DNA of 29,459 nucleotides, from positions 1-29,459 of the forward strand of contig DATHJV010000093.1 in NCBI GenBank assembly GCA_035489645.1, read 5' to 3'. The notes below the pieces were generated by a model that searched no databases, had not been told where the DNA came from, and saw only the letters and a program-made list of their open reading frames with translations. Source of the stretch: Minisyncoccota bacterium (lineage in GTDB: Bacteria; Patescibacteriota; Minisyncoccia; Phycocordibacterales; UBA9973). Of the stretch, positions 11,701 through 18,979 are shown piece after piece. Made by a program: the position numbers and the translations under genes. The stretch's first letter is position 1; each line of letters opens with the position of its first letter.

Positions 11701-11810
11701 CAAGTCAATAAGTCAAACACAAATCGTTGGACACCACTTCCAATTTCACTACCTAAATAGTGCTCTTTTTCTTTTTTCCATATTTGCTGTAATTCTCGAA
11801 TAGTTTTCAT
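8703..11810 (-). CDS. Type IIG-like restriction-modification fusion (nuclease + N6-adenine methyltransferase + target recognition domain)
   Basis: N-terminal HsdR_N-like region VD..EVEK..QIDKY..YGILTDGNEWRFY, motif X GQYFTD, motif I IIDPSCGSGTFL, motif IV GNPPY, and a TRD-like C terminus. Confidence 0.9.
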   Translation of the reverse strand: MKTIRELQQIWKKEKEHYLGSEIGSGVQRFVFDLLTCPELFNLKEGYKSTTQEKRRNEFLKEEGNKAGQVDAVIFIDQDIVIPLEVEKFKKIKSGEWQIDKYRTAFDKKYGILTDGNEWRFYYGDVNDQKYFIFTLDEIFSDTKAFLIFWNEYIRPVNYYVSFFDNIGQHKLEHFEMQIMADKNRQRFFNDVTKIIKKLKTKLLNTGYFNEILDNTKKEKKATEISYSYLIQFILYKTLVDNDFDEFKDEFKKKEKLIHSHLKSGSFNAILMILEGMSVRISENIYKPFYKEQEIIIKQVKELLYSGKDDIMNMSPFLDIFIFIKQYQFANIQNDIFGAIYENYLKELFEEKNYGQYFTDPEVVDFMLREIGYTSDEIKKRNHKNISIIDPSCGSGTFLYSAVREIMQAGSYTTAIESKKIEEDVNQNIFGLDVDEFPLYLAEMSILMRLLPSVISEKYNNPIDKKLKLFMTEDSISEFIEDMGSRKANLYNEMQGRLALGWRYDGFMRDERDLDEMKQSLSTLGGGTNTIPRRRFDFVIGNPPYIGYNECSKLGVKIVKSIQNKESGIKMNDIYGWNLNTVPGRKKAYAPKPNLYAFFMALGFVLLKPHGRFAYIVPQTLLTSGDLDVVRYQLANEYTLEKIVTFAGNLFIGRGTNQKRKIPTSSLIIVCSKEKPKKSNQVECVHFPNIETDIENIFREIKINRSKYSKDISQQKLKEKIENWNFITWNSDFQDYFEKYLALDKLDIYRLPEISLKQFSDVFYFDKGLVFLKSKIRNDENGDFLLVQNSPSYNLQTSGHSIDKNNIRLPGGAQGFDVFQKKYKIVWRYINPDNFKFSDKNIMLDFNWILISSNNKQEMIYLFALLNSSLNLNILNALFKVQNEKSFLIGIKTIKEFVRIPKIDSAEKESKKESVIKLATRILELEKKSISDIVKINSLIQRFDSMNVQKDKLILTENDNKYLFPIEKGYERVVSDSIKNYHDKIGTPRKPISLMSIKEMPAIDSHTINALKNEIDELFMEMYELTQKEKKMFKF

Positions 11811-11818
11811 TACCCGAC

Positions 11819-11847
11819 ATTATATCCTTTAACCTGCTTATTTCCAA
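11819..11847 (-). promoter_or_regulatory. Internal promoter of the RM gene
   Basis: Minus strand TTGGAA (11847-11842), 17 bp, TATAAT (11824-11819), with ATG 8 nt downstream. Confidence 0.6.
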
Positions 11848-13405: not shown

Positions 13406-14377
13406 CTAATTTTCTGGATAAGCTTTATCTGACAAATCTTTGTTGTGAGCTCCCCACCAGTTATTCCATTCGGTCATAAGTTTAATCCCATCTAGCTGTT
13501 TTTGAGCATTTAGTAATGCAACCTCACTGTAAGCATCACTGTCCTCTTGGGCTTTCATCCCTTCATAATATATTTCACTTCCAGCAATAAACTTATTACG
13601 ATAATAATTTTTTAAATCCGGATGAATATAGTCAAGAAAAGCATCGTCAACTTTTTTGCCTAAAGCGATACCCTCTTCCATTTTGGAATATATCTGCTGT
13701 AGTGTTGCTTTTGACTCAGTATCACTTGATTGGTTGTTTGATTTGTTAATTAAATCACTAGCCTCGTACAGAACTGTAAGTGATTGCACAAAATTTTCAC
13801 GATCATCCTTAAATTGTTGGGGAAAACTGGAGGGGGTCATTGAAAAAAATAACCAAAATAAAAATAAAAACAAAGGAAAATAAAACCAATTTTCTTTGAA
13901 AAATTCTTTAATTCTTTTTTGTTTGGCTGAGTTAATAAACTCATTAATTCCAAAAAAAGCTATAGCTCCGACAAGCAATACTTTCACCACAAACCAGACC
14001 CAAGTCCAAACGTTATTAAAAGATGTGTGAATTCCAAAGATTAATATAATACTCCATATTATTAGTGAAACTATTGAAAACAATAGCAATGGTATAAAAA
14101 GAAATGAAGCTATTCCAATTGCTATAGGTGTTCCAATGATTAAAGCAACCAATCCCCAAACTATCGATCCTTTCTGGAATAGAACAATCGCCCACCATAC
14201 CATTGATAGCCCAGCAGAAGCGATATACAAAAAACGAAGGACAGTAAAAATTAACAGGAGTAAACCTCCCCCTATAACAGCTCCCCCAATGCCAATTCCA
14301 CTGAAAACTTTTTTTACAAAACTTTTCTTTTCTATAAACACACTATCCACTTTTTCTATTTCTTGTTCATTTTCCAT
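13406..14377 (-). CDS. Hypothetical multi-pass membrane protein with a soluble C-terminal domain
   Basis: About five or six hydrophobic segments in residues 25-180, followed by a polar helical region. Confidence 0.75.
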   Translation of the reverse strand: MENEQEIEKVDSVFIEKKSFVKKVFSGIGIGGAVIGGGLLLLIFTVLRFLYIASAGLSMVWWAIVLFQKGSIVWGLVALIIGTPIAIGIASFLFIPLLLFSIVSLIIWSIILIFGIHTSFNNVWTWVWFVVKVLLVGAIAFFGINEFINSAKQKRIKEFFKENWFYFPLFLFLFWLFFSMTPSSFPQQFKDDRENFVQSLTVLYEASDLINKSNNQSSDTESKATLQQIYSKMEEGIALGKKVDDAFLDYIHPDLKNYYRNKFIAGSEIYYEGMKAQEDSDAYSEVALLNAQKQLDGIKLMTEWNNWWGAHNKDLSDKAYPEN

Positions 14378-14387
14378 ATTTTTTCAT

Positions 14388-14521
14388 AAAAAAAGCTAGC
14401 TGATAATGGCTAGCATGGAAGCACAGAACCCCACGCCAGCTAGGTCTTGCGACCCTATACAAGTTTCCCTGTATAGCCCTTGGAAGAGTTGCTGAACGCG
14501 GGGTTCAGTATCTTCCAAGGG
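14388..14521 (-). ncRNA. Structured 5' leader / candidate attenuator RNA of the cargo operon
   Basis: 11-bp stem 14477-14487/14511-14521, GAAA-capped stem 14455-14476, GCAA-capped stem 14443-14454, and a GCTAGC hairpin 14395-14414 plus T7 just upstream of the ATG. The GNRA loops and G.U pairs only work on the minus strand. Confidence 0.65.
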
Positions 14522-14619
14522 TCTTTAAACCATATCTCATATGGATACGAGGGTTAGGTCATTCTTATTTAGTTGTGTCTATATAATACAACTTCTTTAG
14601 GGTTTATGCACAATTGATA

Positions 14620-14648
14620 TTGACTCTTAAATAAAGTATTTGTATTAT
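14620..14648 (+). promoter_or_regulatory. Sigma70-type promoter of the replication/integration arm
   Basis: TTGACT (14620-14625), 17 bp, TATTAT (14643-14648). Confidence 0.7.
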
Positions 14649-14666
14649 GGAAGTAATTAAATATTA

Positions 14667-14780
14667 TTCCTGACGGAACAACCGAGGGAACTTTAGTAAA
14701 AACCTTTTTGGTTATACTACGAGTTTCTCGTATCGTCAGGAAAACTCTAGAAAAACCAGCAAGGAAAGTTGGTTTTTTTG
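14667..14780 (+). ncRNA. Structured short transcript or leader ending in an intrinsic terminator
   Basis: TTCCTGACG (14667-14675)/CGTCAGGAA (14734-14742) closes internal hairpins. Terminator AAAAACCAGC/GTTGGTTTTT (14751-14777) is followed by further T runs. Confidence 0.55.
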
Positions 14781-14890
14781 TTTTTTAAACCACAAACGAT
14801 TATTAATTTTTTTAGTTTTTTGTGTTGGTCTTGGATAAAAACTTAGTTGTTCGCTTCCAAGGCCAGCATAAGAAACAGCGAACAACTAAA

Positions 14891-17200: not shown

Positions 17201-18979
17201 ATGCCAGAAATTAATCAGAAAATGGAAGATGCTGTCGCATATCTACGAGTAAGCTCGAGTAAGCAATTTCAGAATGGGGAAAGTATTTTAGATCAGAATA
17301 ATATCTGTATTAATGTTGCGAAGGCGAGGAATTTAAGGATTATACCAAATGATAAGCCTTTTTTTGATGTATTCTCCGGAAGAAAGGAAACTAGGCCCAG
17401 TTATGAGGATTTAAAGGAATTTGTAAAAAAGAATCGCAATGTTAAGTACTGCATAATTAGAGGCATAGACAGATTTACTCGTAGTGGAACACTTGTTTAT
17501 GAAACGATGAAGAACGAACTAGAAAGCCTAGGCGTTCAACTCATAGATAGCTACGGTGTAATTCAGCCTTCAAAAAATACATTGGAGCATCTAGGTATTG
17601 AGTATGATTGGAGCAGAATACGCCCAAGTGAAATAACAGAACTTGTAATGGCCCAGCAAGGAAAGAGCGAAGTTAATCAAATTCTTACTCGGACCATCGG
17701 TGCAGAAATTGCTTTGGTTCGAGCTGGATATCATATAGGACCTCCCAGAGAAGGATATATAAACGCAAAAATGTTTGTTGATGGAAGGAAAAAACCCATT
17801 CAAGAGGCTGATCCGAAATATGCGCCTTTTTTTATTAAAATGTTTGAATTGCGAGCATTGGGAATATATACAGACAAAGAAATAGTGGATCAGATAAATG
17901 CTATGGGTTATCGTTCTCGTATAAGAAACAGCTGGGCTAAAAATAAAGAGAGGGTTATAGGTTCAACTGGTGGAATGAAACTTAACATAAAGCATTTCCA
18001 ACATATCATCGCAAACACTATTTACTGCGGAATTAATACACAAAAATGGCTTTCAACACCTATCAAAACTCAATATAGCGGACTTGTAAGTGTTTCCACT
18101 TTTAATAAAGCAAACAAAGGAGCTAAGTTTATAGAAGAAAAAGCAGATGGAAATATCACCATTCATAAAAATTTCAATCCGCATAGTCTAAAGAGAATTA
18201 AGGATAATCCCCTGTTTCCCTTTAAATCGGTCATACTCTGTCCTGCCTGTGAAAAACCTTTTTTGGGAAGTGTCTCAAAAGGAAAATCTGGTCAAGGCTT
18301 CCCTGCTTATCATTGTTCTAGGGGTCATAAACAATACGGAGTAAGTAAAAAGGAATTTGAAAAGCAAATTGCTCTTTTTATTAATAACTTAAAATATAAA
18401 GCAGACTTTTTTAAAAGTTTTGAGGCAACCCTTATAAATAAATACCGGGAGAAAGAAAAAGAGATTGGTGAATTCTCATTGAAAGCAAATAATAATGTAG
18501 TTGATCTTGAAAAAGAAAAGCTACAAAAGATTGATGCTTTTACTAATACTCAGAACCAAACCATACGGGCTACGCTTGAAAAACAGATAGAGGAAATACA
18601 AAAACAAATAACCGGAGCTCAAGGAGAACGCAATAAACTAGAGGTAAAAGAGAATGATATTCACGATTTTGTTAAATATGCAAAATACTTAATGGAACAC
18701 CACGAAGAAATGCTTTTAAAGCAAAAGAATTTTACTACCTTAAGGGCTCTTTTTGGCCTAGTATTTGATAAATTACCTACTTATTCTGAAATAGTTAATG
18801 GAACACCAAAACTATCTTTAGGATACAAGCTATCTGAAGAATTTACTAATGAGAAAGACTTGACTGCGGGCCCACGAGGAATCGAACCTCGGTCTTCCCT
18901 TTTGGAGAGGGAAATTCTACCTCTAAACTATGGACCCGTAAGCTCTATTTATACATTTCTGAAACGCTTTTTGCAATGA
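17201..18979 (+). CDS. Large serine recombinase (integrase)
   Basis: Catalytic AVAYLRVSS, GIDRFTRS, recombinase domain, zinc ribbon CPACEK...YHCSRGH, and coiled coil. The last 35 codons overlap the tRNA and its promoter on the opposite strand. Confidence 0.95.
   Translation: MPEINQKMEDAVAYLRVSSSKQFQNGESILDQNNICINVAKARNLRIIPNDKPFFDVFSGRKETRPSYEDLKEFVKKNRNVKYCIIRGIDRFTRSGTLVYETMKNELESLGVQLIDSYGVIQPSKNTLEHLGIEYDWSRIRPSEITELVMAQQGKSEVNQILTRTIGAEIALVRAGYHIGPPREGYINAKMFVDGRKKPIQEADPKYAPFFIKMFELRALGIYTDKEIVDQINAMGYRSRIRNSWAKNKERVIGSTGGMKLNIKHFQHIIANTIYCGINTQKWLSTPIKTQYSGLVSVSTFNKANKGAKFIEEKADGNITIHKNFNPHSLKRIKDNPLFPFKSVILCPACEKPFLGSVSKGKSGQGFPAYHCSRGHKQYGVSKKEFEKQIALFINNLKYKADFFKSFEATLINKYREKEKEIGEFSLKANNNVVDLEKEKLQKIDAFTNTQNQTIRATLEKQIEEIQKQITGAQGERNKLEVKENDIHDFVKYAKYLMEHHEEMLLKQKNFTTLRALFGLVFDKLPTYSEIVNGTPKLSLGYKLSEEFTNEKDLTAGPRGIEPRSSLLEREILPLNYGPVSSIYTFLKRFLQ
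18865..18871 (+). repeat. Right attachment-site core TGCGGGC
   Basis: Corresponds to tRNA nt 69-73 plus two trailer bases and overlaps recombinase codons 555-557 (Thr-Ala-Gly). Confidence 0.8.
18867..18937 (-). tRNA. tRNA-Trp (CCA), CCA end not encoded
   Basis: Acceptor GGGTCCA/TGGGCCC, discriminator G, anticodon arm TCCCT-CTCCAAA-AGGGA, T arm CGAGG-TTCGATT-CCTCG. Confidence 0.93.
18948..18976 (-). promoter_or_regulatory. tRNA-Trp promoter
   Basis: Minus strand TTGCAA (18976-18971), 17 bp, TATAAA (18953-18948). Confidence 0.65.

Follow-up and report, generated by a model that had tools for sequence, protein, structure and literature searches.

The hairpins that had been flagged ahead of a cargo operon in the DNA studied here (the window, a stretch of 29,459 nt from a Minisyncoccota bacterium) make up a copy of LOOT, which is catalogued among the structured RNAs of ultra-small (CPR) bacteria. 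We favour, with moderate confidence, the view that this LOOT leader is a cis-acting attenuator, in which a promoter, the four-helix LOOT core and a downstream chain of tail, antiterminator and terminator would together gate the cargo operon of an integrative element. The original prediction, a switch-like leader or attenuator in front of this operon, is in this respect borne out by what we observe, namely the family membership of the RNA, its pairings with their conservation or covariation, in particular the covarying tail and terminator and the conserved antiterminator complementarity, and the geometry of the leader. All of the hairpins and complementarities that it listed are found in the minus strand where it had placed them; the span that it gave, 14388-14521, contains these elements but cuts off LOOT helix P1 (14560-14528) and the promoter. 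The LOOT core is already known, whereas the tail, the antiterminator, the terminator and the reading as a cis leader are absent from the database model and from the papers that we found.

As had been proposed together with the prediction, the window was searched with covariance models against Rfam. The minus strand between 14442 and 14560 matches LOOT (RF03000) with 81.6 bits, compared to a gathering score of 46.4 (E = 3.7e-14); the match spans model positions 1-121 of 121 without truncation and is the sole non-tRNA match above threshold in the whole window. In the Rfam alignment, the hairpin originally called A, the GAAA-capped stem and the GCAA-capped stem coincide with LOOT helices P2, P3 and P4 (Table 1), and the four-helix layout of the family is complete, with an internal loop in P1, a long P2 ending in an apical hairpin, a GAAA-capped P3 and a tetraloop-capped P4. 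The suggestion that this might be a new RNA class has to be dropped for the core, as a strong Rfam match is what the prediction itself had named as making the RNA known rather than novel. LOOT goes back to a survey of candidate structured RNAs published in 2017 (Weinberg et al., PMC5737381), and its structure was refined in Rfam 15 (PMC11701678); otherwise it is mentioned merely as an alignment or structure (PMC7657543, PMC11701678), and a full-text literature search found no paper giving LOOT a function. The window copy shares with RF03000 the full-length model, the four helices, the CCUAA/AUGG internal loop, the GAAA loop and the residence in a small CPR genome, but differs in carrying 54 extra functional-looking nucleotides (tail, antiterminator partner and terminator) that the model lacks. 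Moreover, RF03000 is filed by Rfam as 'Gene; sRNA', that is, as an sRNA gene, whereas the window and its relatives show LOOT in the context of a cis leader.

Table 1. Positions of the LOOT leader elements and of the first cargo gene in the window
Feature	Position	Strand	Basis and remarks
Predicted -10 box TATTAT	14583-14588	-	Read from the sequence; TG just upstream; weak -35-like TTGTGC at 14613-14608
LOOT helix P1	14528-14560	-	Rfam alignment; internal loop CCUAAC / UAUGG, resembling the 11-nt GAAA-tetraloop receptor
LOOT helix P2 (hairpin A)	14477-14521	-	11-bp outer stem and apical hairpin CUGAAC-CCCGC-GUUCAG (14508-14492)
LOOT helix P3	14455-14476	-	Rfam alignment; 9-bp stem with invariant GAAA loop
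LOOT helix P4, end of the Rfam model	14442-14454	-	Rfam alignment; GCAA-capped (stem 14454-14443)
3' tail	14416-14441	-	Outside the Rfam model; CGUGGGGUUC (14435-14426) pairs with GAACCCCGCG (14506-14497), the P2 apical arm and loop
Antiterminator hairpin (predicted)	14409-14440	-	GCUGGCGUGG (14440-14431) pairs with CCAUGCUAGC (14418-14409), occupying the terminator 5' arm
Terminator (predicted)	14388-14414	-	Terminator scan; GCUAGC 14414-14409, 8-nt loop, GCUAGC 14400-14395, U7 14394-14388
First cargo gene	13406-14377	-	323 aa, N-terminal hydrophobic segment; ATG 10 nt after U7; no Shine-Dalgarno motif

Folded alone, the segment 14562-14441 adopts the LOOT four-helix layout as its minimum free energy (MFE) structure, and the 193-nt leader stretch as a whole yields a fold z-score of -6.05, with none of 200 shuffled sequences folding as well. 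In P2, the outer stem joins 14521-14511 with 14487-14477 over 11 bp, and the inner CUGAAC/GUUCAG stem joins 14508-14503 with 14497-14492; among 33 relatives, the outer stem shows changes on both sides at 7 of its 11 pairs. Of about 90 family members that could be folded, 85 have GAAA as the loop of P3, and the loop of P4 varies across the family (GAAA, GCAA, UUCG and others). Two linked variants of the P1 internal loop are seen in the family (loci L002-L101), 42 loci having CCUAAC/UAUGG and 38 having CCUAAA/CAUGG, to be compared with CCUAAG_UAUGG in the canonical 11-nt GAAA-tetraloop receptor (PMC11381326). Such a near-copy of the receptor in P1, together with the invariant GAAA loop of P3, suggests a tertiary contact between P1 and P3 and hence a docked, compact core. 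The receptor-like P1 loop and the P3 GAAA loop largely account for the unpaired nucleotides that are conserved in the core, and they reveal no ligand pocket.

LOOT was found in 70 of the 151 same-family genomes, in one to seven copies each, and in none of 14 control genomes. We collected 101 LOOT loci with their flanks; as the relatives in each comparison are kin, the counts given here overstate independence. In 73 of 99 family loci, LOOT is followed by a co-oriented ORF (at least 70 aa) whose start lies a median of 62 nt (IQR 51-67) behind the end of the model. In 52 of 90 related loci, a -10 box with at least five of six matching positions precedes the model, its end being 20-29 nt from the model start; in the window this distance is 22 nt. 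The first downstream protein carries an N-terminal hydrophobic segment in 63 of 78 loci, compared to 29% of the long ORFs in the window genome and to only 2 of 68 upstream neighbours. Apart from this, the downstream proteins are unrelated to each other: they fall into many small clusters, mostly without Pfam match and with some DNA methylases among them; we found no shared cargo or cognate protein in these loci, and no relative's downstream ORF resembles the window cargo. The divergent neighbour is most commonly a large serine recombinase (13 of 68); a primase-polymerase is another such neighbour. Based on the ORF spacing, the -10 box, the hydrophobic first proteins, the unrelated cargo and the recombinase neighbours, LOOT behaves as a portable, promoter-proximal leader of mobile-element cargo rather than as a free-standing gene. 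The lack of relationship between the cargo genes also argues against a classical, pathway-specific metabolite riboswitch.

A scan of genome contigs with a 17-nt tail pattern matched mostly unrelated GC-rich genomes, and the CPR matches alone were used. Leaders near-identical to that of the window, including the GCUAGC terminator, were seen on genome contigs at loci L304, L305, L307, L319, L331 and L332, in metagenome-assembled genomes titled Paceibacterota, Nomurabacteria or 'Patescibacteria group'. Their cargo is unrelated to that of the window, which suggests that the leader module moves across CPR classes. Window-type copies in assemblies titled Methanoregula (L265) and Pseudobdellovibrionaceae (L252) look like binning carry-over.

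In the window, the predicted -10 box places the transcription start near 14576 on the minus strand. In the family loci (L002-L101), the -10 box and the start of the LOOT model are separated by a conserved ACAACUUAAUA-like stretch, 15-25 nt ahead of the model start, which lies at 14576-14561 in the window and is probably the initial transcribed sequence; a closing helix between this 5' stretch and the region behind the tail was considered and rejected (own -5.2, shuffled -6.1). Between LOOT and the start codon of the 323-aa gene, a scan of the minus strand found nothing resembling a promoter, and the stretch from U7 to this start codon is too short to hold one. Behind LOOT, the minus strand encodes, in this order, the 323-aa protein, a DnaJ-like protein, a TPR protein, an MmeI/Eco57I-type restriction-methylase and a small TPR protein; on the plus strand, divergently oriented, follow a 620-aa winged-helix protein, a 101-aa ORF and a large serine recombinase. 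By this gene order, LOOT lies where the cargo arm of an integrative element begins, within the divergent control region of that element. PADLOC returned nothing for the first three cargo genes. The gene for the 1035-aa type IIG restriction-methylase (start at 11810) is directly preceded by a promoter match, TTGGAA-17-TATAAT, on the minus strand at 11819-11847, so that the transcription unit headed by LOOT may be limited to the first three cargo genes.

The genome to which the window belongs comprises 0.85 Mb (94% complete, 40.5% G+C), and of its ORFs with 150 aa or more, only about 10% are preceded by a Shine-Dalgarno-like motif at -18 to -4. Initiation of translation in this organism probably relies on unstructured A/U-rich regions, such as the U7-AUG-A6 sequence behind the terminator. 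A mini-ORF of six codons, AUG AAA AAA UAU GGA AAA UGA (14367-14387, minus strand), directly follows U7 and overlaps the ATG of the 323-aa gene out of frame.

Beyond the end of the LOOT model, a conserved tail continues in almost every locus, and the 3' part of the window leader (14441-14388), although outside the Rfam model, is conserved in relatives. The original prediction had noted that the 5' arm of hairpin A (14517-14497) is largely complementary to 14436-14416; this holds, and the unconstrained MFE structure of the leader makes use of this very pairing. In the window, the pairing of tail and P2 extends to 24 bp over 14517-14491, and the resulting duplex, at -39.5 kcal/mol, is the best among 99 tails tested against the window P2. 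Across the loci, duplexes with the own tail average -29.5 kcal/mol, and those with tails exchanged between loci -19.1 kcal/mol; in 78% of loci, the own tail is among the best 10%. The apical 5' arm of P2 lies within the duplex in 93 of 99 loci, and the loop does so in 95. Further evidence comes from the subclass of the window, 92 clean members obtained from a metagenome scan for the window-type apical hairpin in which two loop positions were left free. In these members, the two positions are paired with the tail in 183 of 184 cells, involving eight different loop dinucleotides, compared to 114.5 +/- 5.5 paired cells for shuffled tails, with a maximum of 133 in 2000 shuffles. In a 33-sequence alignment, the core helix formed by 14510-14497 and 14435-14422 is 98.4% paired and shows compensatory changes at two positions.

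Thus, the alternative pairing that had been proposed for hairpin A stands for its apical part, but not for the extension into the outer stem of P2 (UGGAAG:CUUCCA), which we reject as a family feature: 66-70% of cells are paired, and own tails score -3.5 compared to -3.2 for swapped ones. This extension is local to the window, L030 and L305, and as it is not conserved, the tail pairing could be a static pseudoknot instead of a switch. On the other hand, the apical 5' arm of P2 is already paired in the Rfam consensus hairpin, so that for this arm the hairpin and the tail pairing are mutually exclusive; a shorter pseudoknot involving the loop only could coexist with the closed apical hairpin. Pairing of the 3' arm of P2 with the start region of the downstream gene, which would mask that region, holds for a subset of the family (own -9.1, swapped -5.3 kcal/mol; 42% of loci in the best 10%), but is weak in the window (-4.9). 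In some loci (e.g. L019, L023, L025 and L050), the 15-20 nt before the ATG repeat the outer 5' arm of P2, and consequently the P2 3' arm can mask the start region there, forming a platform unlike the terminator of the window.

The tail is followed by the GCUAGC hairpin (14414-14395) with its U7 run ending 10 nt before the ATG, an element of the original prediction that the terminator scan confirmed. With 6 bp, an 8-nt loop and -7.8 kcal/mol this hairpin is weak, which counts against the attenuator reading. Its helix covaries in the alignment of relatives, with changes on both sides at 4 of 6 pairs and 93.9% of cells paired; one position, for example, is U-A in 17 sequences and C-G in 15. Within the subclass, 38 of 92 members possess a hairpin and U-run within about 45 nt of the tail, with the ATG following the stem at a median distance of 12 nt, while 54 members have no terminator-like hairpin and an ATG within tens of nucleotides. 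A separate terminator accompanies 26 of 34 tails that are fully complementary to the apical arm (UUC[UA]GUG), but only 12 of 58 other tails, counts that are non-independent as the members are kin. Classical intrinsic terminators are also seen at gene ends in the window, for example at 2138-2112.

An antiterminator had been proposed in which CUAGCUGG (14443-14436) pairs with the 3' arm of the terminator (14403-14396). These eight pairs can indeed form, but the 3' arm is not the main partner: averaged over 38 relatives, pairing of the tail start with the terminator 5' arm reaches -18.7 kcal/mol (shuffled -9.6; mean z -3.7, z < -2 in 89%), whereas pairing with the 3' arm, at -8.6 kcal/mol, does not rise above its shuffled background of -9.6 and was set aside as the weaker option. 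The value of -11.7 that the 3'-arm pairing attains in the window, as well as the 82% paired cells that it shows on the alignment, result from the palindromic nature of GCUAGC; that it is paired to this extent counts against the attenuator reading as specified here. In terms of global folds, the version with the 3' arm (-64.1 kcal/mol) is less stable than that with the 5' arm (-68.4 kcal/mol). The predicted 5'-arm antiterminator, 14440-14431 with 14418-14409, overlaps the 5' arm of the terminator and has CGUGG in common with the tail:P2 helix; a transcript cut at 14404 adopts this antiterminator in its MFE fold, and the duplex in the window scores -18.6 kcal/mol compared to -8.6 +/- 2.5 kcal/mol for shuffled sequence. 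The complementarity of the tail start to the terminator 5' arm holds whatever the sequence of the terminator, and it is stronger than the terminator hairpins themselves, which score -4 to -13. The share of paired cells in the alignment is 87%, and drops to 32-57% when the partner is slid. Covariation, a check that had been put forward with the prediction, is thus found for the tail:P2 helix and for the terminator but not for the antiterminator, for which the alignment contains no compensatory double changes and the covariation score equals that of shuffles; it is conserved complementarity that makes this hairpin a candidate.

How these elements might work together is indicated by the predicted folds of the growing transcript. 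Through 14441, the MFE structure is the LOOT fold; at 14416, it is the form in which the tail has invaded P2; at 14404, the LOOT fold returns in combination with the antiterminator; and once U7 is included, the tail-invaded form prevails together with the terminator. For the full leader, the tail-invaded form with terminator is calculated at -72.5 kcal/mol, the LOOT fold with antiterminator at -68.4 kcal/mol and the LOOT fold with terminator at -65.8 kcal/mol, so that the two global folds lie about 4 kcal/mol apart. In the mechanism that we propose, the LOOT RNA would be transcribed from a promoter about 15-25 nt upstream and form the 5' leader of the cargo operon in the CPR integrative element. 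The apical hairpin of P2 would then either be closed, or have its 5' arm and loop taken by the tail. A free tail could pair with the 5' arm of the terminator, giving rise to the antiterminator and allowing the polymerase to read into the gene for the 323-aa membrane protein, whereas capture of the tail by P2 would permit the GCUAGC hairpin and U7 to form and transcription to stop 10 nt before the ATG. Some signal would shift this balance, and a ligand, a protein of the element or the speed of the polymerase could serve as such. Termination at the hairpin, the population of both folds in vivo and their selection by a signal are the steps that we infer.

Platforms that consist of a terminator, an antiterminator and an anti-antiterminator are exemplified by trp-type attenuators and by transcriptional riboswitches that share a pseudoknot strand with the platform, such as ZTP. 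The LOOT leader resembles them in its overlapping segments that can pair with either neighbour, in the final hairpin and U-run just upstream of a gene, in having two states of nearly equal energy, and in a predicted fold that flips as the transcript grows. It differs from them in that it precedes unrelated mobile-element cargo instead of one pathway, and in that many LOOT copies have no terminator. In the window leader, the hairpin and U7 at a distance of 10 nt from the ATG are conserved as a structure; the alternative pairing that excludes the terminator, and that is itself excluded by a third pairing, is conserved by complementarity only.

Instead of switching, LOOT could be a constitutive structural leader, with the tail held in a fixed pseudoknot, that serves as an mRNA stabiliser, as a translation platform in place of a Shine-Dalgarno sequence, or as an antitermination element of the put/EAR kind. 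Unrelated cargo families and divergent integrase or primase genes would be compatible with this, the receptor-like loop and the invariant GAAA suggest a rigid tertiary fold, Shine-Dalgarno-like motifs are rare in this genome (about 10% of genes), and a terminator directly behind the RNA would fit a put-like 'gate'. The putL/putR RNAs of phage HK022 and the EAR element of Bacillus are cis-acting antitermination RNAs, which, like LOOT, are structured, promoter-proximal and located at the head of horizontally acquired operons, with terminators behind them. This likeness is one of description only, and put and EAR need no competition by base pairing as it is seen between the tail, antiterminator and terminator of LOOT. 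We consider a constitutive leader unlikely, as the tail is complementary to an apical 5' arm that is already paired in the Rfam consensus hairpin and both pairings cannot hold together, as the antiterminator/terminator pair has the layout of a regulated platform, and as about 15 unpaired nucleotides at the predicted 5' end are unlike a 5' stabiliser. The Rfam type 'Gene; sRNA' points to another possibility, a stand-alone, trans-acting sRNA of about 185 nt, for which the tail and GCUAGC-U7 would simply be its own terminator and cargo expression an incidental read-through. A unit of about this length is indeed bracketed by the promoter-like -10 box and the terminator, genomes hold one to seven copies of LOOT, and the fast-evolving apical loop could be a target-recognition seed. 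We would nonetheless give this idea rather poor prospects: more than half of the subclass (54 of 92) has an ATG within tens of nucleotides but no terminator-like hairpin, the fixed spacing to a co-oriented start codon is not what an independent sRNA gene would be expected to show, our scan found no separate promoter for the downstream gene, and in every locus the partner of the apical loop is found in cis.

The original prediction had likened the leader to the C4 RNA of phages P1/P7 and the CI RNA of phage P4, which are processed antisense RNAs that act on upstream target sites, such that an immunity RNA of this type would pair with sites upstream in its own transcript and thereby cause termination. 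The resemblance lies in the GNRA-capped stems, in the internal complementary sites thought to affect termination and in the location of these structured RNAs on mobile elements, and it is resemblance only. Covariance-model searches of 14200-14850 against Rfam returned, at E <= 1, LOOT and four chance matches but no family of the C4 type, on the grounds of which we reject membership in this group. Blastn found no similarity to known phages or plasmids (50,697 phage and 72,556 plasmid records), the host element being a CPR integrative element with a serine recombinase; furthermore, the arrangement in the window, with a structured core followed by a tail, a terminator and the gene in cis, differs from that of C4 and CI. 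That LOOT is an immunity RNA of this kind therefore appears highly improbable. The same applies to a reading at the DNA level, be it as a single-strand origin, a recombination site or an operator array, although the location in the divergent control region of an integrative element, beside replication and recombination genes, would be suited to it. G-U pairs are maintained on the minus strand only, the helices carry GNRA tetraloops and P1 a receptor-like loop, and the orientation relative to the -10 box and the downstream ORF is fixed, all of which speaks for RNA rather than DNA.

If the attenuator reading is extended to the family, it is conceivable, though for now a tentative thought, that LOOT is a widespread and portable promoter-plus-leader switch rather than an sRNA, placed by CPR mobile elements before their first cargo gene, which mostly encodes membrane, secreted or restriction-modification proteins. 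The core would then be a sensor, locked by the tetraloop-receptor contact and reading a signal of the cell or of the state of the element, with its output passing through lineage-specific platforms, such as the terminator here and masking of the start site elsewhere. If this is true, LOOT would constitute an orphan riboswitch-like class specific to ultra-small bacteria, where it is among the few structured RNAs known from CPR/Patescibacteria. The window locus presents the expression platform behind LOOT in its clearest form and thereby offers a concrete model that can be tested by mutation; its platform argues for re-filing the LOOT family as cis-regulatory. Gene regulation in the reduced, host-dependent CPR bacteria is almost unexplored, and if a leader controls the membrane and defence cargo carried by their mobile elements, it would offer a useful way into this field, now that some Saccharibacteria can be manipulated genetically (PMC10633639).

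On the opposite arm of the element, the plus strand contains a promoter match of its own in the 14620-14780 region (TTGACT-17-TATTAT, 10 of 12 positions), positioned back-to-back with the LOOT promoter. Behind this match, and still before the GTG of the 620-aa gene at 14822, lies a hairpin of 13 bp with a T-run (14748-14780, plus strand), which may be a second leader or attenuator, in this case for the replication/integration arm. Further along this arm, the last ~110 nt of the serine recombinase ORF (17201-18979, plus strand) cross an antisense tRNA-Trp gene (18866-18937, minus strand), an overlap that suggests integration of the element into a tRNA gene, with the C-terminus of the recombinase depending on the junction.
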